Shown one piece after another: positions 6,440 through 34,500 of a stretch of 64,000 nt of DNA (the first letter of the stretch is position 1; every line of letters starts with the position of its first letter). The notes below the pieces were generated by a model that searched no databases, was not told the origin of the DNA, and was given only the letters and a program-made list of their open reading frames with translations. The stretch is from positions 7,317 to 71,316 of the forward strand of contig JBDRCT010000029.1 in assembly GCA_043821445.1 (NCBI GenBank), read 5' to 3'. A program made the position numbers and the translations under genes. Source of the DNA: Candidatus Omnitrophota bacterium. Its GTDB lineage: Bacteria > Omnitrophota > Omnitrophia > Omnitrophales > Aquincolibacteriaceae.

Positions 6440-8011
6440 ATGCTTACAGGCACTAAAAAAGTTCAGCAAGGCGGGCAGGACTGGTTCGTGGTCCTCAATC
6501 CCCTCCAGAGCGAGTTGGAACGCAACAAAATCGCCCGTGAGATCGCCAAGGCTTTTCGTCTTCCCGTGGACGAGGCTCTCGATCTCGTGCAGAACACCCC
6601 CATCATCCTGGTAGACAATCTTTTGTATGCGACCGCGCTTCAGGTAAAGCAATATTTTCGAAACGCTCAAACGGATATCGTGATTAGTAATGATGGTTTT
6701 TTGAAGCGACGATGTTATCGAACCGTATGGCCTACACCGCCCAATCTCGCATTCCTTCATCAGGCAGAGTCTTCGGCGGCTTCATCCAAAAAAAATGAGA
6801 CTGAAAAGCTTGATCACAGCGAAGCGATCCAGGAGATCCGATCCTGGGTTCAGGCCGAGGGGGTTTCTTCGGAGCGTGGCGATCGGGCCCCTTTGGGGAA
6901 TGGTATGGCCCATCAAAACGGCCGTCATTTTCGGAGCATTCTTGAGGAAGAGCGTGAAAAACTTTTAAAAGAGAGCGTGGGGCTAAGAGAGAGCGTGAGC
7001 CAGCTTCGCAAGGCGCTTGAAAAGGCACAGGCGGAAGTTTCAGAAAAAGAAAGGATTGTAAAGGTTGGCGAGGCTGCAACAAAACAGAAAGAAAAAGAGG
7101 CCCAGGAATTGCAGACTTTGGTGAATCACGCTGAGGAGAAATATGAGCTTCTCCGTGAGGAGTTCCGCCAGACACGCCAGTATTTTGAAGAAAAGCTGGG
7201 TTCCGAAGATCATAAGGCTGAAGAGTTATTGAAGCAGATCGAAGAGCGCGATCTGACCCATAAAGAGCTGCTGCAAGAGAAGCAGATGCTCCTCAAAAGT
7301 TTTCATGCTGTAAAGAATGATCTCCAGCGTGCGAAGGATGAGCAGGAACAGGCGCGTCGCGAATGGGAAAGCCAGACCGCTCAGTTCCGGAGAGAACTCG
7401 AGAATCAAAAAACCCTGGTGGAGGGTCTCCACGCGAAGATTAAAAATCTCGAAGAAGGCAAGAGGATCGTCCAGTCGAGTGAAACTCGCCTGATTCAGGA
7501 ATTAGAACTCCAGACCCAACAGGCCAAACGGTGGGAGCAGAAATCTTCCGAGTTCGAAAAAGAGATTCGGCAGATCCGGGCATCTTTCGAAGACCAGCAG
7601 AAGTCCTGGCAAGTGCGTCTAGCACAGCTTGAGGCCCGGGAGATGGATTTGGAAAATGCTCGCAAGCAGATCCGTCAGCTTTATGCCGAGCTGGATCAGC
7701 GTGAGACTGTGCAGAAAAAGGCCCAGTTCCATGAGCAACTCATGTCCAAAGAGGCGCGCTTGAAGCAGGTGGTCAAACAGCAGGAGAAGATCGAATCCGA
7801 GATCCGTGACCGTGAGGAGGATATGAGGAAACTCTTGGCAGAACAGGAAACGATCGAACATGAAATGATTGAAACGAAGCAGGCCCATCGGCATTTGGCC
7901 GAGAAAACAAAACGTGAGGGTCCTGTTTTGGAACAACGCAAGCACGAAAGTTCTCCAGACGCCTCTGTATTTCACACCTCCCAAGCTCATCCCGAGGCTA
8001 TTGATGATTGA
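6440..8011 (+). CDS. coiled-coil protein with a small N-terminal globular domain
   Basis: 523 aa. About 85 aa globular N-terminus, then roughly 400 aa of E/Q/K/R-rich heptad-like sequence. Confidence 0.6.
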   Translation: MLTGTKKVQQGGQDWFVVLNPLQSELERNKIAREIAKAFRLPVDEALDLVQNTPIILVDNLLYATALQVKQYFRNAQTDIVISNDGFLKRRCYRTVWPTPPNLAFLHQAESSAASSKKNETEKLDHSEAIQEIRSWVQAEGVSSERGDRAPLGNGMAHQNGRHFRSILEEEREKLLKESVGLRESVSQLRKALEKAQAEVSEKERIVKVGEAATKQKEKEAQELQTLVNHAEEKYELLREEFRQTRQYFEEKLGSEDHKAEELLKQIEERDLTHKELLQEKQMLLKSFHAVKNDLQRAKDEQEQARREWESQTAQFRRELENQKTLVEGLHAKIKNLEEGKRIVQSSETRLIQELELQTQQAKRWEQKSSEFEKEIRQIRASFEDQQKSWQVRLAQLEAREMDLENARKQIRQLYAELDQRETVQKKAQFHEQLMSKEARLKQVVKQQEKIESEIRDREEDMRKLLAEQETIEHEMIETKQAHRHLAEKTKREGPVLEQRKHESSPDASVFHTSQAHPEAIDD

Positions 8012-24227: not shown

Positions 24228-26037
24228 AAAGCAGAAATAAAGGCGCCCCTTTATTTTGGAGGTCGCGATGGTGACACCGTCCCAGGATGGGCCCGGCGGA
24301 TCGGCGCGGCAGGATTGAACGCGGGATGCGTAGAGATCGTAAAGTGGCCCCAGTTCAATGTCCGGCAACTTGATCTTCCTGCAGTTTTCAAGCGATTTTT
24401 CGACTTCTTCCCAACGTCCGCTCCGGTAAGAGGCGAGCATCCGTTCTTGTTCCGTTTTGAGTTCCCGGAAGACCGCGCGGTCGTTTAAATCCTTATCTCC
24501 CAAAAGTGCGAAGATATTGACCGGGGTCTTCTTTCCCTTCACACGGATCAGGTCCACTTCCAGGGCCGCATTTCCGGCACTCCTGCCATTGTATTGGCCC
24601 CCAGGATGGTGGTCGTGCCATAATTTTTTGAGGCGCCTTCCAGCCGCGAGGCGAAATTGACGTCATCGCCCAGGACCGTGTAATCGAACCGATGCTCGGA
24701 CCCCATGTTGCCGACGCAAGCCTCGCCGGTATTGATGCCGACACCGCTCTTGATCTCCAGGAACGGTTTGCCTCGCTCCTCAGCCTCCCGCTTCCGGAGT
24801 GCGTTCCACTCCCGCAGGAACTGCTGCATCTCGATTGCCGCGAGACACGCGTGTTTTGCATGGTCCTTGTCCCCGAGCGGAGCGTTCCAGAACGCCATGA
24901 TGCAGTCCCCGATGTGTTTATCGATCGTGCCGCCGTGCTTCAGGATGATATCGGTCATGGGCGTCATGTAATGGTTCATGAATTTTGTGAGTTCCTGGGC
25001 GGTCATGGTCTCGGAAAGGCTCGTGAAACTCCGGATATCCGAAAAAAGAAAGGTCATGGTCCTGGTCTCGCCGCCGAGCTTGAGCTGTTTCGGATCCTTG
25101 ACCGGTTTTGCCACCAAGGCCGGGGAAAGATAACGGCTGAAGGCGCCGCGGATCTGGCTTTTCTCGCACTCGGTACGCAAAAAATTCAGGAATGAGGACA
25201 CAAGATAGATGAGGAAGATCACAAGCGATGGGAACACGGGGTCCGTGAGCAGATGGTGCCGATCAAAGGCGTACCACGAAAGTCCCATGGCGAGCGTCAC
25301 GGCCGTGATGCCGACCGCTGCGCAGAGAACGGCGCCCGCCCGCGGCAAAAGCAGGATCAAAATGAGCCCCAGCAGGACCAGGTAACTGAATTCGGCGCCT
25401 TCGGCCCAGTCCGGCCGTTCGAGGAAGTTTTGAAGAAGGATCTGTTCGGCGATCCCCGCATGGATCTTCACCCCCGGAGCGCGCGGATTGAGCGGCGTTG
25501 AACGGAGATCTTTAAGGCCTGCCGCGCTTGTCCCGATAAAAAGCAGGGTCCCTTCCAGACTCGCAAGGTCAAAATCGTCCGAGAGAACCTTCCAGGCCGG
25601 GAGGTAACGTTCGGGCTGATCGCCCGTATCATAAAGCCAGACCCTGCCGTGTTTGTCCGTGGGAATCGTGAGTTTGCCGATGCGGACCTTCACGATGCCC
25701 GTCCTTTCTCCGAAGGCCCGTTCGCCGCTGCCGCCGCTGAGCTTGATCTTGTAGAGGGTCGCCCCTTGTGCGACCCGCAGGGCTTCCGCTGCCAGGGAAG
25801 GATAAATGGTTTCCCGCAGGTTGAAAAAGAGGGGGAGACGGCGGATGACGTTATCCCGGTCATCCGGCATCGCGATGCTTCCGTTGCCGGCCGCGGCTTT
25901 CTCCAAAACGGGCAGATCGACAACAGCGCCCTCATAAGAAGGGCGAAGGTGGTCGATGGCCTTATCGCCCGCGATGCCGCCGTTCCCGTTCGAAGCCGCG
26001 ATTGCCGTTTCTCGATCAGTCCCGAAGACGGAGCTTG
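24207..26037 (-). pseudogene. CHASE2-domain class III adenylate/guanylate cyclase, 5'-truncated and frameshifted near the 3' end
   Basis: The 452-aa ORF (24548-25906) carries the distal part of CHASE2, TM helices and the cyclase core (FLFSDIRSFTS…GDCIMAFWNAP). The cyclase C-terminus (DLIRVKGKKTPVNIFALLG) continues in another frame in the ORF at 24207-24557. The frame is open upstream to 26037 with no start codon and no N-terminal TM or CHASE2 N-half. Confidence 0.65.
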
Positions 26038-26140: not shown

Positions 26141-27432
26141 TGTCCGCTTTCCGTAGCACGTGATTTGTCCGCTTTTGGTTTTTGGTTATTTTGAGCTCCT
26201 GGGTTTCTTCGGGTTTGAATTTGGCAATTATGTGCGGTCCGTAGGTGACGGTGATTGATTCATCGAGATGCTCATGGATCGTAACTTTGCATTTAGCAAA
26301 GGAGATTCTGAATTTCGAAGGTTGAATCTAAAGGATCCTGTTGTTCCAGTGTACGGTGTTGTCGCATCCGACGGAACGTTGCTCTTTGATTGAGAAGACG
26401 AGGTCAAGGTTCTTGCCCCGGTGAGGGGTAAAGGCCGTTCCTTTTTGTTCCGGGGGTTTTACGAAAGATGCCCGGTACTGTGGCAGAAAGGTCTCAAGGA
26501 TGTAGCGGTTGGCATCGGGAATGGTCTTGATGCCGTAGAGTTTGAGTTCATTGGGCAAACGACCCTGTCATGTTCCGAAGATCCTTTCGGATCGGCCCCG
26601 TGCTTGAGGGGAATAGGCAGGAATGGGCTCGATGCCGAGCTCGTAGAGAGCTTGTCCGATCTGAGTGAGATTAGAGAGATCGACTTTGGGGCTAGACGGC
26701 AGGGTTCGGAAGAAGTGACTGGCGCGATCCGAATAAAGGAGGCAAAAGACCCCCTTGGACCGGACCACATGGCGTAGAGCGAGCATGCATTCCCTGGAGT
26801 TTTCCTGGGGAACGAGCTTGGCGTAATAGATGTCACCGGTGGCATCATCAGCGACCACGATGAGATCTTGGTGGCCTGGAAGGTTCGGGATCCATGAATG
26901 CGTGGAACCGTCGATATGGAGCATCATTCCCGGGATGGGTTTTCTGGGCCGGCGTTGGTGGTGTTTTGATTTTTTGGAGCGGACCTCGACGTACCCAGCG
27001 CCTTGGAGCAGGTTTTTAACCCAGGTGTATTTATAACCGATGCCGTGCTTGGCGAGTTGTTCATAAAAGTGCCATGTGTTCCAATCTTTGTATTGGTCGC
27101 GGTAGAGCTGAAGAACGCGGCTTCTGACGGGTTCTGGCGCCCTTTTAGGGCTCGGACGCCTGCTTCTGCGGTCGAGAATGCTTTCGTAGCCGCCCAGTTC
27201 GACGGATTCTTTCCAGCGGCGAATGGTGCGTTCGTCAACTTTCAAGATTTCAGCAACCTCTCTCCAGGTTAAGGATTTGTGATAGGCCCTGGTGAAGACA
27301 TCTTGTATTTTCATGATCCGCTCCCATTGAGCCGGGGGATAGAGCATAATCAGCCTCCTGTTCTGAGCTTGAAAAGCTGATTATACGGTCCGGCATAAAA
27401 GCGGACATTTCACGTGCTACGGAAAGCAGACA
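26141..27432 (-). mobile_element. IS element (~1.29 kb) with 36-bp imperfect terminal inverted repeats; ISNCY/IS481-like DDE transposase
   Basis: IRL at 26141-26176 (TGTCCGCTTTCCGTAGCACGTGATTTGTCCGCTTTT) against the reverse complement of IRR at 27397-27432: 33 of 36 positions match. One transposase gene lies between them. Confidence 0.7.
26328..27347 (-). pseudogene. DDE transposase (HTH + rve-like core, HIDGSTHSW motif) interrupted by an in-frame TGA at 26568-26570
   Basis: The ORFs 26568-27347 and 26328-26558 are in the same frame, separated only by the TGA. The joined product reads …RGRSERIFGT*QGRLPNELKLYGIK…, like uninterrupted ISNCY-type transposases (…ER.FGTLQDRL.KELRL.GI…). Confidence 0.65.
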
Positions 27433-27467
27433 ATTCATTAGCTTACGACAGCGTTGGTCACTTCCAT

Positions 27468-27496
27468 TGACAACGCCCCCTAAAACGATAATAATA
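27468..27496 (+). promoter_or_regulatory. putative promoter (TTGACA … TAATAA) upstream of the bactofilin-HTH gene
   Basis: TTGACA at 27468-27473, an AT-rich -10 region about 16-17 nt downstream, and an AAGGAGA RBS at 27528-27534 before ATG 27540. Confidence 0.35.
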
Positions 27497-27539
27497 AGTT
27501 AGCTTCTGTATCCCACAATGCCTCCAAAGGAGAACGACC

Positions 27540-28076
27540 ATGGCCAATAATAAAAAGAAGGAAGATATCCAGGAGAAGATTCTTGACGTTGACGCGAGCA
27601 TGCAGGGCACGATTTCGTTCAAGGATCCCGTGAATTTGCGCATCAACGGAAGTTTTGAGGGCAAGCTTGACACGCGCGGCAATCTCACGATCGGCGAGAA
27701 CGCCAAGGTCAGCGCGAATATTCACGGCGACAATATCGTCATAGCCGGAAAAGTTTCCGGAGATGTCATGGCGACTCAAAGCATTTCCATTCTTGGAACG
27801 GCAACTCTCAAAGGGAACCTTACCACGCCACGCTTGAGCATCGGAGACGGCGCAATCCTTCAAGGACTTGTGAATATGCAAGGCCTGAGCGTTTCAGATG
27901 GATCGGATGTTTTTTTGACTTTAAAGGATGTGGCGCAGTATTTGGAGGTGGAGGCTCGCATTATTGAAGAGTGGGCACATTCCAAAAAGATCCCGGCCCG
28001 TTTTGATAATGGTCACTGGATCTTTACCAAGACCGAGGTGGATCAATGGGTCCAGCGGGAGAGGGCTTCGGTCTAA
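27540..28076 (+). CDS. bactofilin (DUF583) domain fused to a C-terminal excisionase/MerR-type helix-turn-helix DNA-binding domain
   Basis: Residues ~30-125 have a bactofilin beta-helix repeat pattern (NLTIGENAKVSANIHGDNIVIAGKVSGDV…LKGNLTTPRLSIGDGAILQG). The C-terminus LTLKDVAQYLEVEARIIEEWAHSKKIPARFDNGHWIFTKTEVDQWV matches the HTH_17/excisionase signature. Confidence 0.7.
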   Translation: MANNKKKEDIQEKILDVDASMQGTISFKDPVNLRINGSFEGKLDTRGNLTIGENAKVSANIHGDNIVIAGKVSGDVMATQSISILGTATLKGNLTTPRLSIGDGAILQGLVNMQGLSVSDGSDVFLTLKDVAQYLEVEARIIEEWAHSKKIPARFDNGHWIFTKTEVDQWVQRERASV

Positions 28077-28155
28077 CGTCGCGCGTTTTGTCCGCGGTGT
28101 TTTTCCTGTCGCAAAGCATTCTCACGCTTTTTAGCTATAAGGCGACTAATACATT

Positions 28156-28464
28156 ATGAATAACATGCTGACCTTCGACGAGGTGAAAAACTTTCTCGGG
28201 GTCGAACAACAAGTGATCGAGCAGTTCATCCGGGATGAAGTTTTGCACGCCTACAAGATCGGCGGCGTGTATATTCGCTTCCGGAAAGAAGAGGTTCTCG
28301 GTCTTAAGTATGATGTCCTGCTTAAGAAAAAAAAAGGCGCGACTTCCGGTTCCTTCGGGCAGCGGTTGTGGGATTTTTGGCGATTCAATAATTTTTATAT
28401 CATCTCCGTTCTGATCATCGCGGCATTGGCGTATTGGTTTTTGCACACCACGGTGTCTTCTTAG
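28156..28464 (+). CDS. membrane-anchored helix-turn-helix protein (N-terminal excisionase-type HTH, C-terminal TM helix)
   Basis: LTFDEVKNFLGVEQQVIEQFIRDEVLHAYKIGGVYIRFRKEEV is paralogous to the HTH of the preceding gene. C-terminal hydrophobic helix FYIISVLIIAALAYWFL. Confidence 0.55.
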   Translation: MNNMLTFDEVKNFLGVEQQVIEQFIRDEVLHAYKIGGVYIRFRKEEVLGLKYDVLLKKKKGATSGSFGQRLWDFWRFNNFYIISVLIIAALAYWFLHTTVSS

Positions 28465-28474
28465 GGCGGCTATT

Positions 28475-28858
28475 TTGAAAATCCTTCAGGGTATCGATCT
28501 GGTCAAGGTCGAGCGGATGGAACGGACGATCGAGCGGACGTCAGGGAAGGCCTTTCTGAATCGCGTTTTTAGCGCTGTGGAGCAGGCCTATTGCGGCTCT
28601 AAACGCATGAAATTCGAGCATTACGCGGCCCGCCTTGCTGCAAAAGAAGCGGTTCTGAAGGCCCTCAAGGTTCGTCCGAAAAAAAACAGGCGGCTTTCGG
28701 AGATCGAGGTCAGGCACGAAGCTACCGGGAAGCCGTTTATTGCCCTAAGCTTAAAGTGTCGCAAGCAGTTCCATATCCCGGCACAGGCTCAGATCGAGTT
28801 GTCGGTTGCGCACGAACGTGAGTATGCGATCGCGACCGTTGTGGTCGTGATTCCCTAG
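28475..28858 (+). CDS. acpS: holo-[acyl-carrier-protein] synthase
   Basis: GIDLVKVERM…AARLAAKEAVLKALKV matches the 4'-phosphopantetheinyl transferase family. Confidence 0.8.
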   Translation: MKILQGIDLVKVERMERTIERTSGKAFLNRVFSAVEQAYCGSKRMKFEHYAARLAAKEAVLKALKVRPKKNRRLSEIEVRHEATGKPFIALSLKCRKQFHIPAQAQIELSVAHEREYAIATVVVVIP

Positions 28859-28874
28859 AAAAAAGAGATATGAA

Positions 28875-29648
28875 ATGAAACAAAAAATGCTCATCGTCAA
28901 CGCGGATGACTGCAACTTAACCTCTCAGGTCACATCAGCCATTTTGAAAGCCCACGAGAACGGAATTGTGACCAGCACGACCTTTTTAATTAATCTTCCA
29001 GTGGGGCCGGGCGTAGTCCGAGAGCTTCTGGGCAGAAAAAAACTCGGGATCGGACTTCATATCAATGTGACCCTTGGAAAGCCTGTGGCCAAGCCGGAAC
29101 TCGTGAGATCTCTCCTTCAGAAGGACGGGCGCTTCAAGAAAAAGGAACAGTATTCTGAAAAGAGACTGCCGCCTGTTTCCGAGATCGCAGAAGAGTTTAA
29201 AGCACAGCTCCTGAAATTTGTAAAGGTCTTCAAGCGATTGCCAACTCATGTGGATGTTCATCATCATATGCACGATTTTCGGCCATTTCTGGAAGCGCTT
29301 GCGGCGATCGCCCGAAAACACAATCTTCCTGTCCGTTGGACGCGGCTTTTGACCGAACCGGAGGTCAGAAATGCCCACAAGGATCTCAAAACCACGGACC
29401 ATTTTTATGGGAATATAGACCCGCACACATTCTGGACGGAAGAAGTGCTGAGGCATTTACTTTTCACACTTCCGGAGGGGACAAGCGAGATCATGTGCCA
29501 TCCGGGATGGGTGGATGATGAACTTTGCTCCATCAGTTCGCTTACGATCCCGCGTGAGAGAGAGTATCAGCTTTTCAGTTTGAAGGAACTACGCAGGTAT
29601 GTCGACCATCTCGGGATCCGGTTGGCGCATTTTGGATGCTTGCGTTAG
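28875..29648 (+). CDS. YdjC/ChbG-family carbohydrate deacetylase-like protein
   Basis: MLIVNADDCNLTSQVTSAILKAHENGIVTSTTFLIN matches the YdjC family signature. Confidence 0.75.
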   Translation: MKQKMLIVNADDCNLTSQVTSAILKAHENGIVTSTTFLINLPVGPGVVRELLGRKKLGIGLHINVTLGKPVAKPELVRSLLQKDGRFKKKEQYSEKRLPPVSEIAEEFKAQLLKFVKVFKRLPTHVDVHHHMHDFRPFLEALAAIARKHNLPVRWTRLLTEPEVRNAHKDLKTTDHFYGNIDPHTFWTEEVLRHLLFTLPEGTSEIMCHPGWVDDELCSISSLTIPREREYQLFSLKELRRYVDHLGIRLAHFGCLR

Positions 29649-29770: not shown

Positions 29771-29962
29771 CTACTTTACGATGGTTCCATCAAGTGTTTC
29801 AAAGATGATCGTGACGAGGTTATGACATTTGGGGCATTTGATTTGCTTAAAAGCCTGGATATTATCATGTTTGGGGCGGTACATGATCGAGAGAATCTTA
29901 GTGACGAAGCTAGCTTCACTGCCGGACCATTGGCAAGCGGGACAGTTATAAGCTGATTTCAT
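29771..29962 (-). CDS. small zinc-ribbon protein (CPxC…CPKC)
   Basis: 63 aa with two CxxC pairs. Confidence 0.4.
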   Translation of the reverse strand: MKSAYNCPACQWSGSEASFVTKILSIMYRPKHDNIQAFKQIKCPKCHNLVTIIFETLDGTIVK

Positions 29963-30083: not shown

Positions 30084-30425
30084 GTGAAAATCAGAATGAT
30101 CAGTCTCGTGTTTGTGCTGCTGTTTTGCCAGCCATTTTCTCCCGCTTATGCGGCCGAGGAGCCTGGATATTTCACCCAGTTGGGACGGGCTTTCACACGA
30201 GGGCTCAAGAACATAGTGAGTTTTCCGTGGGAGATCCCTTTGACCATCAGCCGCTATGATCAGAAAACTAACGGTAACCCCCGTGTTTTCCGGAATGCGG
30301 AGGGTTTTGTGGATGGAACGTTCCGTGCCGTGACAAGATTTGGCTGCGGTGCTTGGGATGTTCTCTTTTCTGTGGTACCCGGGCAGCAAAATGAATTACC
30401 TCTCAAGCCCGAGACTCTTTTTTGA
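30084..30425 (+). CDS. small secreted protein, paralog B of the 5532 gene
   Basis: GGAGGA RBS then GTG 30084 and a signal peptide. Shares TRGLKNIVSFPWEIPLTI with paralog A. Confidence 0.6.
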   Translation: MKIRMISLVFVLLFCQPFSPAYAAEEPGYFTQLGRAFTRGLKNIVSFPWEIPLTISRYDQKTNGNPRVFRNAEGFVDGTFRAVTRFGCGAWDVLFSVVPGQQNELPLKPETLF

Positions 30426-30651: not shown

Positions 30652-30727
<76 letters not shown>

Positions 30728-31585: not shown

Positions 31586-34500
31586 TTGAGTCTAAAGTTT
31601 TTTAAGGACTTCATTCTGGCTGTCAAAATGCGTCTCGGTGCTTTTTGGGCCCGGAAGAAGATCGCCGAGGAACAGCCTCTTCGTGCCGAGCTTTTCAGTA
31701 TTGATCAGTTTAAGGCGCATGCGAAAGGCCTGGCCCAAAGACATCGTGTCAGTTACAAAAAGGGGCAGAACCGGCTCTTGCTTCGGTTGAGAAAAAATGA
31801 ACAGGTGCTTTCGGAGATCCACGAATTACTTAACGAGACGGGAAAACCCAAACGAAGGATCGCGCCGGCCGGAGAATGGCTTCTCGATAATTATTATCTC
31901 ATTGAAGAACAAATAAGGCTCGCCCAGAAATACCTCCCGGGAAAGTACATCCGCGAACTTCCCCATCTTCTTCGAGGACCGCTTGCCGGTTATCCGCGTG
32001 TTTATGAGCTTGCCATGGAGCTTGTCTCCCACGGCGACGGACGGCTGGATAGCCAGGGGCTTGCGGAGTTTGTCACGGCATATCAAACCGTCAGCCACTT
32101 GAAACTCGGCGAACTGTGGGCCATCCCCATTATGTTAAGGCTGGCGCTTATCGAAAACTTGAGGCGCGTATCCTCCCGGTTGATTGTGGCACAAATGGAA
32201 AGAGATAAAGCGGATCATTGGGCGACGCGGATCCTGGGAGTTTCGGCCAAAGATACCGATGGGGTGATCTTTGAAATCGCAGCGATGGCCAAAGGGAACC
32301 TGCCGCTTTCCGACGCTTTTGTCGCGGAATTCACACGGCGTTTGCATGGTCAAAGCCAAGCGCTCACTCTTCCTTTTGCTTGGTTGGAAAAGAAACTTGC
32401 GGAGCAAGGAGAGACCCTCGACAGAATCATCCGGGCAACCAGCCAAAAACAGGCGGCCGATCAGGTCTCGATCGCGAACACGATTGGGAGTCTGCGTCTT
32501 CTGGAAGTTACCAATTGGCATGATTTTGTCGAAGCCTTGAGCGTTGTCGAAAAGGTTTTGAGCCAGGATCCATCGGGAGATTACAGCCGGATGTCTTTCG
32601 AGACCCGCGATCGCTATCGGCATGTCGTGGAGAAGCTTTCTTTGAGAAGCAAGACCGGCGAAGAGAAGATCGCGGCGCGCGCGATCCAGATCGCAAAGAG
32701 GGCCGAAGGGGAGAAAGGTCCTGGCCACGTCACGACGCATGTAGGTTTTTATCTTCTCGATAAAGGATTGGAGCTTTTTTGTGGCGAACTGGGCTTTCGC
32801 TTACCTCTCCGGCAGTATCTTCAGGCGAAAAAAAATTTTTGGCCGGCTGTCCTGTATTTTTCTTCCATTACTGTGATGACCCTTACCTTGACCGCAGGTA
32901 TTTTGTTTTGGATGAAGCCAGGGGGGAGCTCGAATTGGCCGTGGTTTCTTTTATTCGGGATGCTCCTTCTGTTCGCGATAAGCCAGACGGCGGTGTCACT
33001 TGTCAACTGGTTTTCCGCGATGCTCGTGAGCCCCCAAGACCTTCCCCGGATGGATTTTTCAGAAGGAATTCCCGCTTACGCCCATACGCTGGTCGTGATC
33101 CCTTGCATGCTCAGTAACGCGCGCATGGTTACCGCACTTTTCGAAGGGCTAGAGGTCCACTATCTTGCGAATATCGACGCGAATACGGATTTTGCCCTCT
33201 TAACGGATTTTTGCGATGCCCCGCAGGAGACGATGCCTGAGGATGCGGCCTTGTTGGAGCAAGTTACGGACGGGATTGAGCAGCTGAATCACAAATATCG
33301 ACGGCGGAAAGATCACGTTTTCTATCTTCTTCACAGGCCGCGCCGGTGGAATGAAAAAGAAAAGGTGTGGATGGGGTATGAACGCAAGCGGGGCAAACTG
33401 GCGGATCTTAATGCGTTCCTTCGCGGAAAAGGGGAAGGCCGGTTTAGCGTGATTCTCGGGGACCCGCAGAGGCTTCAGACCGTGAAATATGTCATCACGC
33501 TGGATACGGACACCCGGATGCCACGGAACGCGGCGCGGGAGCTTGTCGGGGTCATCGCGCATCCGTTGAACAAGGCGGTCTATGATGAAAAAAAACAGCG
33601 GGTCATCTCCGGATACGGGATCCTCCAGCCCCGGGTCGAATCCAGTTATCCTGGAGAAAATCCTTCTTTGTTCGTGAGAGTCTTTGGAGGCGATTCCGGG
33701 ATCGATCCTTACACCAAAGCGGTGTCCGATATTTACCAGGATCTTTTCTTCGAAGGGTCTTTTATCGGTAAAGGGCTTTATGACGTCGATGCGTTCGAAA
33801 GATCCATGGAAGGCCGTTTCCCGGAAAATCTTATCTTAAGTCATGATCTTTGGAGGGCTGTTACGCCCGCTCAGGGCTTGTGACGAATGTTCAATTCTAC
33901 GAGGAATATCCCTCGGGTTATCTTAAAGACTCAAACAGGAGATACCGTTGGATCCGCGGGGATTGGCAAATCGTTCCCTGGTTGTTCGCTTCGGTCCGCG
34001 GGTCCAGCGGCGCAAAGGCCCGAAATCCGGTTTCTTTTCTGTCTCAATGGAAGATCGTGGATAACTTAAGACGGAGTCTTGTTCCTTTTGCGACGGTTTT
34101 GCTGCTTGTGTCAGGCTGGATGTTTTTTCAGCCATCCTGGATGTGGTCGGTCTTTGTGATCGTTCTTCTTGGTTTTCCCCTCGTGCCGATATCTCTGACG
34201 GAGGCGGTGAGGAAACCCGGGGATCTGACCTTCAAGACCCATTTTGGGCTGGTGTTGTCTTCATTCAAGAAGAACGTGGTCCGGTTCTTCTTCTCGATCG
34301 CTTTTTTGCTGCACGAGGCGTTCTATTCTTTGGATGCGATCGTGCGAACTTTGTGGAGAATGTTCGTGTCGCGGAGGCATTTGCTGGAATGGCGGCCCTC
34401 CCGGGATTCGGAAGTGTCTCTGCGAAAAAATATTTTAGATTGCTACAGGAACATATTCCTGGAACCCATTGCCGCGGGGCTATTGCTGGTTTGCCCTTCG

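Follow-up and report, generated by a model that had tools for sequence, protein, structure and literature searches.

Why should the gene of a cytoskeletal polymer end in a helix-turn-helix (HTH) domain, and why should the next gene carry a related HTH fixed to the membrane? This question is raised by two adjacent genes of a Candidatus Omnitrophota bacterium (assembly GCA_043821445.1, contig JBDRCT010000029.1), of which we analysed positions 7,317 to 71,316 of the forward strand, a stretch of 64,000 nucleotides that we call the window and from whose first letter all coordinates below are counted. Bactofilins are widespread scaffolds whose attachment to membranes and to client proteins is understood in few model species, and the Omnitrophota are an uncultured phylum, often with ultra-small cells. 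We find that the two genes, encoding a bactofilin fused to a winged HTH (BacHTH) and a partner made of an HTH and a C-terminal transmembrane helix (HTH-TM), form a conserved, unstudied two-gene module of this phylum. Full-text literature searches returned no paper describing the bactofilin-HTH fusion or its partner. Automatic pipelines already tag both domains, and current annotations read 'excisionase family DNA binding protein' or 'helix-turn-helix domain-containing protein'. Relatives were collected by a species scan using one genome per species, which returned 80 loci at 49-95% identity.

The first-pass annotation of this DNA, made from the sequence alone, had placed two open reading frames (ORFs) at 27540-28076 and 28156-28464, and both are present at these positions. 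The first, ORF A, is laid out as follows (pLDDT, predicted local distance difference test, is the confidence measure of AlphaFold2):

27540-28076, stop codon included, plus strand: BacHTH gene (ORF A), encoding a 178-residue bactofilin-winged HTH fusion (profiles, AlphaFold2 model)
27540-27572, plus strand: N-terminal tail, residues 1-11 (MANNKKKEDIQ), charged, without the canonical membrane-targeting peptide
27573-27878, plus strand: bactofilin beta-helix core, residues 12-113 (Pfam, AlphaFold2, Foldseek)
27879-27911, plus strand: short acidic linker, residues 114-124 (dip in pLDDT)
27912-28073, plus strand: excisionase/MerR-type winged HTH, residues 125-178, with an acidic 'recognition' helix, EVEARIIEEW (HTH_17, Foldseek)

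By profile and by fold, ORF A belongs to the bactofilin family. PF04519 (Bactofilin) matches it with 82.2 bits for a cutoff of 27.9 (E = 3.3e-23), over residues 14-110 and profile positions 2-96 out of 98. The AlphaFold2 model, built on 40 orthologues, has a mean pLDDT of 85.8 and consists of a beta-helix at residues 12-113, with core strands at pLDDT 90-96, a low-confidence linker at 114-124, where residues 117-121 fall below 50, and a winged HTH at 125-177. When the model was compared to the PDB with Foldseek, its N-terminal half was found to align with BacA of Caulobacter crescentus (2n3d, target-normalised template modelling score, or TM-score, 0.85, root-mean-square deviation, rmsd, 1.8 Å), and with the Thermus thermophilus bactofilin; the score of 6rib is 0.78. 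The bactofilin domain announced by the first-pass annotation is therefore real, but its core had been put at residues ~30-125, a range that is shifted relative to the correct one, 12-113.

The C-terminal domain was likewise identified correctly as an excisionase-type HTH: it scores above cutoff with both PF12728 (HTH_17, 40.4 bits for a cutoff of 27, residues 125-174) and TIGR01764 ('excise', 33.6 bits for a cutoff of 28.8). All elements of a winged HTH are modelled at pLDDT above 90, namely strand 125-127, helices 128-135 and 139-147, strands 154-156 and 159-163, and helix 164-177. The closest structural matches are the DNA-bound forms of BldC (6ama and 6amk, target-normalised TM-score 0.78-0.83, rmsd 1.3-1.7 Å), followed by the RdfS excisionase, RacA, HiNmlR and the centromere-binding domain of pSK1 Par. 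The fusion is not a member of the BldC family, as the NCBIfam BldC model NF033787 gives 18.5 bits for a cutoff of 77. The linker that joins the two domains is 10 to 13 residues long in 73 of the 79 fusion sequences, and residues 13-55 of the core are almost invariant phylum-wide.

The second gene, ORF B, adjoins the fusion gene and has the following parts:

28156-28464, stop codon included, plus strand: HTH-TM gene (ORF B), encoding a 102-residue protein, the predicted tail-anchored partner
28165-28299, plus strand: winged HTH, residues 4-48, with the invariant wing motif AYKIGG.Y.RFRKEEV (HTH_17, hhalign)
28369-28401, plus strand: aromatic juxtamembrane motif WDFWRFNNFYI, residues 72-82 (orthologue conservation)
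28390-28452, plus strand: C-terminal transmembrane helix, approximately residues 79-99, with a basic KKKK stretch before it and few residues after it (hydropathy)

ORF B itself stays slightly below the cutoffs of PF12728 (26.3 bits for 27) and TIGR01764 (22.6 bits for 28.8), while PF12728 is annotated on many of its orthologues; a database protein 100% identical to ORF B is named 'helix-turn-helix domain-containing protein [Candidatus Omnitrophota bacterium]'. Its AlphaFold2 model is of low confidence (pLDDT 64), shows the winged HTH elements in the same order as in the fusion, and has a helix at 79-101. ORF B had been described as a membrane-anchored paralog of the HTH of the fusion. BLASTP gives no alignment between the two HTH segments, but when the family profiles are compared with hhalign, they match with a probability of 97.6% (E = 3e-12, 30% identity over 47 columns). 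Homology of the two HTHs follows from this comparison, with a paralogy visible at the profile level only, and the C-terminal transmembrane segment is confirmed. A hydrophobic window of 19 residues is found at the C-terminus of all 80 partners (Kyte-Doolittle mean 2.10, minimum 1.58). It stops about 2 residues short of the stop codon, with lysines and arginines on its N-terminal side, and the topology predicted from these features is that of a tail-anchored protein with a cytoplasmic HTH. Just before and within the start of the helix, residues F74, W75, R76, F77, N78, N79, F80 and Y81 are invariant in close orthologues, and the motif is still recognisable in divergent lineages, as DFFYFNSFYI, YNDFYI or TYDFYA.

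How constant is this pair? Its architecture recurs in 80 species-level genomes, far more often than chance would allow. Among the 80 loci, nearly all are from Omnitrophota metagenome-assembled genomes, and two are labelled Planctomycetia yet are syntenic with Omnitrophota loci. Downstream sequence is available for 79 of the 80 loci, and every one of these has the HTH-TM gene directly 3′ of the fusion gene, at a distance of -4 to ~120 nucleotides in most cases. The same arrangement, with a gene for HTH_17 and a C-terminal transmembrane segment immediately downstream, was found in four more divergent lineages, in which the fusion shares ~35-45% identity with the query. Both flanks of the pair, by contrast, vary by clade: mnmA, or gatCAB and tsaD, or def and a PAP2 gene are found upstream, and acpS, ydjC and surE, or greA, or a LarB-like gene with GspE/PilB ATPases, downstream. 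Because adjacency is kept in 79 of 79 loci and in divergent lineages while the flanks change, we conclude that the pair is an old, vertically inherited and functionally coupled module of the core chromosome. The suggestion that the two proteins work together is thus strongly supported, by an adjacency that is invariant across the whole phylum.

Both Pfam domains are present in every one of the 120 best relatives of ORF A, and those that are named are Omnitrophota proteins called 'polymer-forming cytoskeletal protein'. An exhaustive search of 1.84 billion cluster representatives returned ~10,800 bactofilins, among which the full-length fusion accounts for only ~25-30 clusters (at 50% identity); the named members of the divergent clusters are from 'PVC group bacterium'. 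Two variants apparently devoid of the HTH (P0122 and P0126) were discarded, as their C-terminal sequence is unrelated and looks like that of frameshifted gene calls rather than of true paralogs. The gene that usually follows the pair was also recorded:

28475-28858, plus strand, same orientation as the pair: acpS, holo-ACP synthase (Pfam ACPS 49 bits, TIGR00516 79 bits)

It comes after the pair in 69 of the 80 loci, and ydjC is present in 62. No terminator-like site was found within 27300-28900, and acpS is probably co-transcribed with the pair, with no functional link shown between them.

Does the fused HTH bind DNA? The first-pass annotation had proposed that the fusion would make a DNA-binding filament. 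In the BldC-DNA structures, K26 and R30 read bases, T27, T29, K33 and W31 touch phosphates, and H46, R47 and R48 fill the minor groove (PMC5859096); in RacA, the base contact is made by the arginine equivalent to BldC R30 (PMC5859096). These positions were mapped from BldC onto 79 fusion and 80 partner sequences. In the fusion HTH, the R30 position is occupied by a glutamate or an aspartate in 73 of 79 sequences, and the T29 position by a glutamate in 68, so that Glu-Glu stands where BldC has Thr-Arg and RacA Gln-Arg. A glutamate is also found at the R22 position in 76 of 79 and at the D24 position in 78, and the wing arginine (R47) is replaced by a tryptophan in 75. The net charge of the domain is -2.5 on average (range -6 to +1), compared to +6 for BldC. 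Judging from these substitutions, the fused HTH appears to have lost the residues that its relatives use to read DNA: it is an HTH_17 member by profile and fold, but lacks the matching DNA-contact residues. The proposal of a DNA-binding filament is borne out only in part, and is unsupported as far as the fused HTH is concerned.

The partner gives a different picture. Lysine or arginine is kept at the positions of BldC R41, R48 and R50 in 78 to 80 of the 80 sequences, and at the R30 position in 52, and the HTH proper is roughly neutral in net charge. Within this domain, conservation is lowest in the recognition helix, with an entropy of 2.21 compared to a domain mean of 1.36. More generally, positions of side-chain contacts with DNA vary more than the average of the domain in both families (entropy 1.76 and 1.73), which is the opposite of what is expected for readers of a conserved DNA site.

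These data bear directly on a first alternative, a scaffold that tethers DNA: both HTHs would bind DNA, the polymer arraying them and the partner pinning the DNA to the membrane, and the chromosome would be anchored or organised in a way analogous to RacA-DivIVA, Noc or BacNOP-PadC-ParB. The fold of the fusion HTH argues for it, being nearest to that of DNA-bound BldC, RdfS, RacA and the pSK1 Par centromere-binding domain, and RacA, a chromosome anchor, is the best PDB relative by sequence (E = 0.0056), although at the recognition helix RacA reads SAKTVQRW and the fusion VEAKVVEEW. Architecture is favourable as well, since BldC and RdfS act as multimers along DNA, an arrangement that a polymer would pre-organise, and since non-polar bactofilin filaments would set two C-terminal HTHs side by side at each tail-to-tail junction, in a MerR-dimer-like way. 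The basic wing of the partner and the lysine or arginine that is frequent at its R30 position fit this scheme, and the neighbours of one distant fusion include an actin-like gene and that of a ParA/MinD-like ATPase. Against it stand the acidic character of the fused HTH with its Trp in place of the wing Arg, the low conservation of DNA-contact positions in both proteins, down to a partner recognition helix that varies more than any other part, and the near neutrality of the partner HTH. Moreover, no conserved repeat or operator was recognised, and neither parA, parB, padC nor smc is linked to the module in the 80 Omnitrophota loci. The same survey of conserved neighbours bears on the one-polypeptide analog of bactofilin-PadC-ParB that had been imagined for the fusion: with none of the ParA, ParB and PadC genes linked in these 80 loci, the analogy is a functional speculation only. 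Overall we regard a DNA-tethering scaffold as rather unlikely, while keeping it as a serious competitor.

If they are not maintained for reading DNA, what are the two HTHs conserved for? BldC offers a second surface to consider, the head-to-tail contact of its dimer, made by F21, R22, V23 and W31 on the head and by L11, E16, I40, T42, L43 and G44 on the tail (PMC5859096). Head positions of the fusion HTH have a mean entropy of 0.21, and its tail positions one of 1.50. The reverse is found in the partner HTH, with 1.52 at head positions and 0.39 at tail positions. A contrast as extreme was obtained in only 28 of 20,000 random position sets, and no correlation exists between the conservation profiles of the two domains (r = -0.06). 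These reciprocal entropies and uncorrelated profiles argue that the two HTHs are under different, complementary constraints, as far as family alignments can tell. A mirror-tree test gave a partial r of 0.56 (p ~0.001), a value that is uninformative as it is confounded by shared phylogeny and by the near-invariant core.

The reading that we favour, tentatively and at somewhat less than even chances, is that the bactofilin polymer is fastened to the membrane by docking of its HTHs on those of the tail-anchored partner. The bactofilin core would polymerise like other bactofilins, via its retained hydrophobic end residues, and the polymer would display one HTH per subunit on a short linker. With the basic DNA-reading residues gone, this HTH would expose an invariant acidic and aromatic patch (Y134, L135, E136, V137, E138, E143, E144 and W145) on the face that BldC uses both for contacting DNA and as the head of its head-to-tail dimer. 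The patch would dock on the most conserved surface of the partner HTH, composed of its N-terminal residues and of the wing motif AYKIGG.Y.RFRK, which corresponds to the tail face of BldC. The partner would thereby fasten to the cytoplasmic membrane a polymer devoid of the canonical N-terminal membrane-targeting peptide, and its conserved basic wing could additionally touch DNA or anionic lipid. Use of the fold for binding proteins has precedents among the Foldseek neighbours of the ORF A HTH, CbpM with the J-domain of CbpA (3ucs) and 6hn7, which, judging from their PDB titles, would bind protein and not DNA.

The N-terminus of the fusion is in keeping with the need for such an anchor. Canonical bactofilins reach the membrane through a targeting peptide of consensus MFSKKKK, whose function requires Phe2 and the lysines, and membrane binding and polymerisation reinforce each other (PMC12448750). 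The fusion starts with MA(N)KKK and then turns acidic; position 2 is an alanine in 65 of the 79 sequences and a phenylalanine in none, and the fusion is thus devoid of a canonical MFSKKKK-type peptide. At the other functional site, Leu107 of the fusion occupies the position of BacA F130 and T. thermophilus bactofilin (TtBac) F105, which is critical for polymerisation. This position is a leucine, isoleucine or methionine in 77 of 79 sequences and a phenylalanine in 1; its residue is thus hydrophobic, though rarely aromatic as in BacA and TtBac, and polymerisation of the fusion is plausible.

Several observations weigh against HTH-to-HTH docking. First, a strict BldC geometry would turn the R22-E16′ salt bridge into Glu136 facing Glu9, and the docking geometry can therefore not be identical to that of BldC. 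Second, head and tail residues overlap with residues that determine the fold of the family, and no complementarity in net charge exists between the two HTHs (rho 0.03 and -0.16). Third, RacA, BldC, RdfS and pSK1 Par, the nearest relatives of known structure, bind DNA, as does the HTH_17 family, and in the fusion HTH the K26 position still holds a lysine or arginine in 61 of 79 sequences, as DNA tethering would predict, and the K36 position a lysine in 74. Finally, the partner is not a simple replacement of the N-terminal targeting peptide: we rejected this simple version, as the P0161 lineage has both a targeting-like MFKRKPK start and the partner. In the boldest version of these scenarios, two homologous winged HTHs of the excisionase type, one on the polymer with its former DNA-binding face acidified and one on the tail-anchored protein, would have been re-purposed as a DNA-independent heterodimerisation device, a hitherto unknown means of joining a bactofilin to the membrane that would be common to a whole phylum of ultra-small bacteria; alternatively, the pair would be a tether of minimal design that links DNA to polymer and membrane without ParB. 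We put this forward with reserve, as less likely than not.

The divergent lineages yielded additional observations on the composition of the locus. Two lineages of the fusion, the P0174 and P0138 clusters, have no partner downstream. In the P0138/P0417 lineage (L089, 3001-3558), the partner-less fusion has the recognition helix SMVRKW, basic as in RacA and BldC, and is followed by a 234-residue protein with an N-terminal transmembrane segment and a coiled coil. If its recognition helix is a guide, DNA binding may have been retained in this lineage. A rule by which a basic recognition helix would occur only where the partner is absent did not hold, as P0137 has VKKW together with the partner. 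The most distant fusion, 28% identical, was found on a JGI metagenome contig (Ga0105164_10002154, L081, 1-3982), again with no HTH-TM partner downstream. It has MKFFPQKKR as its N-terminus, and adjoins an actin-like 'Volactin' gene, a gene for a 465-residue ParA/MinD-like ATPase with an AMPK1_CBM domain, and two unknowns of ~216 residues; these genes possibly form a cluster with a role in the cytoskeleton or in positioning. A SPOR-domain protein and a TPR/PDZ protein precede the module in the P0137 lineage (35% identity; L082, 2289-3946). SPOR domains bind septal peptidoglycan, and this neighbour hints at a link to cell division.

How is the module expressed? Two signals were read upstream of the fusion gene:

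27467-27495, plus strand: sigma-70-type promoter of the module, TTGACA, 17-nucleotide spacer, AATAAT (11 of 12 positions match)
27526-27532, plus strand: Shine-Dalgarno sequence AAAGGAG, 7 nucleotides before the ATG, read from the sequence and kept in the upstream alignment of relatives

In 39 of 77 loci, promoter sites matching at least 10 of 12 positions were found, compared to 0.9 expected from shuffles; as the loci are related, this count is not one of independent events. The median distance from the -10 element to the ATG is 44 nucleotides in this survey. The promoter-like signal that the first-pass annotation had attributed to the pair is thus borne out, by a good site that recurs in related loci well beyond the shuffles. 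Three loci (L002, L010 and L015) have no TTGACA/ATAAT promoter, and show instead an inverted repeat, CCCCAATTTCAGGTTCTCTGAAATTGATGAGAATTGGG, ~90 to 40 nucleotides upstream of the start codon of the fusion, between mnmA and the fusion gene. This repeat may represent a terminator or attenuator, or else a small element that has inserted here.

A promoter of its own, with a strongly conserved 5′ leader, is also what could be expected of a regulatory switch, in which one or both HTHs would be transcription factors, for instance autoregulating the operon, with access to DNA gated by sequestration on the polymer or at the membrane. Such a switch would amount to the BacR-BacE/F circuit of Bacillus in fused form, or to a regulator tethered to the membrane. 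In Bacillus, bactofilins recruit a DNA-binding HTH protein of the same operon to the membrane and inhibit it (PMC13649987). Yet neither of our two proteins matches DUF4004 in Pfam scans at E up to 0.1, and the promoter alignment showed no operator-like conserved repeat. The fused HTH is without DNA-reading residues and, in a covalent 1:1 fusion, cannot leave the polymer as BacR does. As for the partner, it has no sensor domain and ends ~2 residues beyond the membrane. We consider a switch of the BacR type improbable.

The promoter is not borrowed from the insertion sequence (IS) that lies to the left of the pair:

26141-27432: ISNCY-family IS of 1,292 bp, with 36-nucleotide terminal inverted repeats at 26141-26176 and 27397-27432 that are 92% complementary

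The promoter site at 27467-27495 sits outside of this element, between its right end (27432) and the start codon, and relatives that have no IS have it too, equally far from the ATG. The element is single-copy within the window and ends 108 nucleotides upstream of the fusion start codon. Its transposase frame, on the minus strand from 27347 down to 26328, contains a single in-frame TGA (26568-26570), which makes it a pseudogene or else dependent on readthrough.

Could the pair be cargo of this IS, or of an integrated element, acting as an excisionase or recombination directionality factor, or as a defence HTH such as MADS1? Its position next to an ISNCY element and the name 'excisionase family' of its domain invite the idea, as do weak matches to MADS1 and phage excisionase families. 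However, the IS has its own inverted repeats and its right end leaves the fusion gene outside; the relatives examined have no IS at this place, and have the housekeeping genes mnmA, tsaD or gatAB upstream instead; no integrase was found nearby, and the pair is vertically conserved across the phylum. With the MADS1 model (NF047737, PADLOC mad1), the score is 40.2 bits for a cutoff of 80, the PADLOC match amounts to 22.9 bits and covers the HTH only, and the neighbours are housekeeping genes, so this candidate was dropped. Synteny and the IS boundaries effectively refute a cargo role, to which we give hardly any credit. The IS that had been noticed beside the pair is real and adjacent, but it is not tied to the pair, being absent from all relatives examined, and its proximity is incidental to the module.

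The region left of the IS shows traces of a local change. A gene with CHASE2 and adenylate/guanylate cyclase domains (24548-25906, minus strand), just left of the IS, seems N-terminally truncated: its CHASE2 match begins at position 102 of the 257 of the profile, at residue 4 of the protein. In addition, this locus lacks the mnmA and glycosyltransferase genes that precede the module in close relatives. Together, the truncated gene beside the IS and the missing genes suggest an IS-associated rearrangement or deletion left of the module.

Downstream of the module, a 63-residue ORF (29771-29962, minus strand) with two CxxC pairs, zinc-ribbon-like and without Pfam match, is present in 54 of the 80 loci. 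It is 94-100% identical in species whose neighbouring proteins reach only 70-90%, and appears unusually constrained. Beside it in 38 loci lies the gene of a 113-residue protein (30084-30425, plus strand), with an N-terminal signal-peptide-like segment and no Pfam match. Further on are a tRNA-Ala (GGC) gene at 30652-30727 and a 765-residue ORF (31586-33883, plus strand) whose middle region looks transmembrane and which has no Pfam-A match at E up to 0.01.

What would the module add to the biology of bactofilins? The Omnitrophota appear to have replaced the usual terminal peptides of bactofilins by a folded HTH and a dedicated, tail-anchored partner bearing a homologous domain. The paired-HTH design and its phylum-wide conservation are likely to surprise a specialist of the cytoskeleton. 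Should the HTHs dock on each other, the module would reveal a new way of anchoring a bacterial cytoskeleton, and a clear case of a DNA-binding fold turned into a protein adaptor. Should they bind DNA instead, no simpler link from cytoskeleton to membrane and chromosome would be known. Either outcome would also correct the present automatic annotations.

Like the canonical bactofilins BacA and TtBac, the fusion has a bactofilin domain and a beta-helix fold, and the residue at the end position critical for polymerisation is hydrophobic, although not aromatic as theirs is; unlike them, it is without the MFSKKKK-type peptide, and a folded winged HTH takes the place of the usual disordered C-terminal tail. 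In the canonical partnership, a small single-pass membrane protein such as PbpC contacts the polymer through its cytoplasmic part (PMC12448750). The association of a polymer with a single-pass membrane protein is therefore shared with BacA-PbpC. In contrast to PbpC, however, the partner described here is predicted to be tail-anchored, has practically no extracytoplasmic part and no enzymatic domain, and its HTH is homologous to that of the fusion.

A bactofilin polymer is joined to HTH proteins also in the BacNOP-PadC-ParB/ParA system of Myxococcus xanthus, where the link to DNA is made by a separate adaptor, PadC, and by ParB bound to parS (PMC5703909). The Omnitrophota HTH differs in being of the MerR/excisionase type rather than the ParB type, and in having acidic residues at the positions that read DNA. 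The BacR (YhbD, DUF4004)-BacE/BacF system of Bacillus subtilis likewise has an HTH protein co-encoded with bactofilins, and there the two interact physically and the bactofilins bring BacR to the membrane (PMC13649987). BacR, however, is a separate, releasable and dimeric DNA-binding protein of another family, whereas in the Omnitrophota one HTH is covalently fused to the bactofilin and the second is itself predicted to be inserted in the membrane.

RacA of B. subtilis (PDB 5i41 and 5i44), a structural neighbour, resembles the fusion in that a MerR-like winged HTH is placed on a self-associating module. This module is a coiled coil working with DivIVA in RacA and a bactofilin in the fusion, and the arginine of the RacA helix SAKTVQRW makes a base contact. 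BldC (PDB 6ama and 6amk; PMC5859096), the closest structural match, is a minimal winged HTH without effector domain, as is the HTH of the fusion, but it is basic, its DNA readers K26, R30, H46, R47 and R48 are mostly not kept in the fusion, and its head-to-tail dimer forms only on DNA (PMC5859096). The CbpM-CbpA J-domain complex (3ucs) and the pathogenicity-island protein 6hn7 have the same fold and would illustrate its use as a protein-binding module, with no specific sequence relationship to the fusion HTH detectable. The module thus resembles BacA-PbpC, BacR-BacE/F and RacA-DivIVA, yet is none of them.

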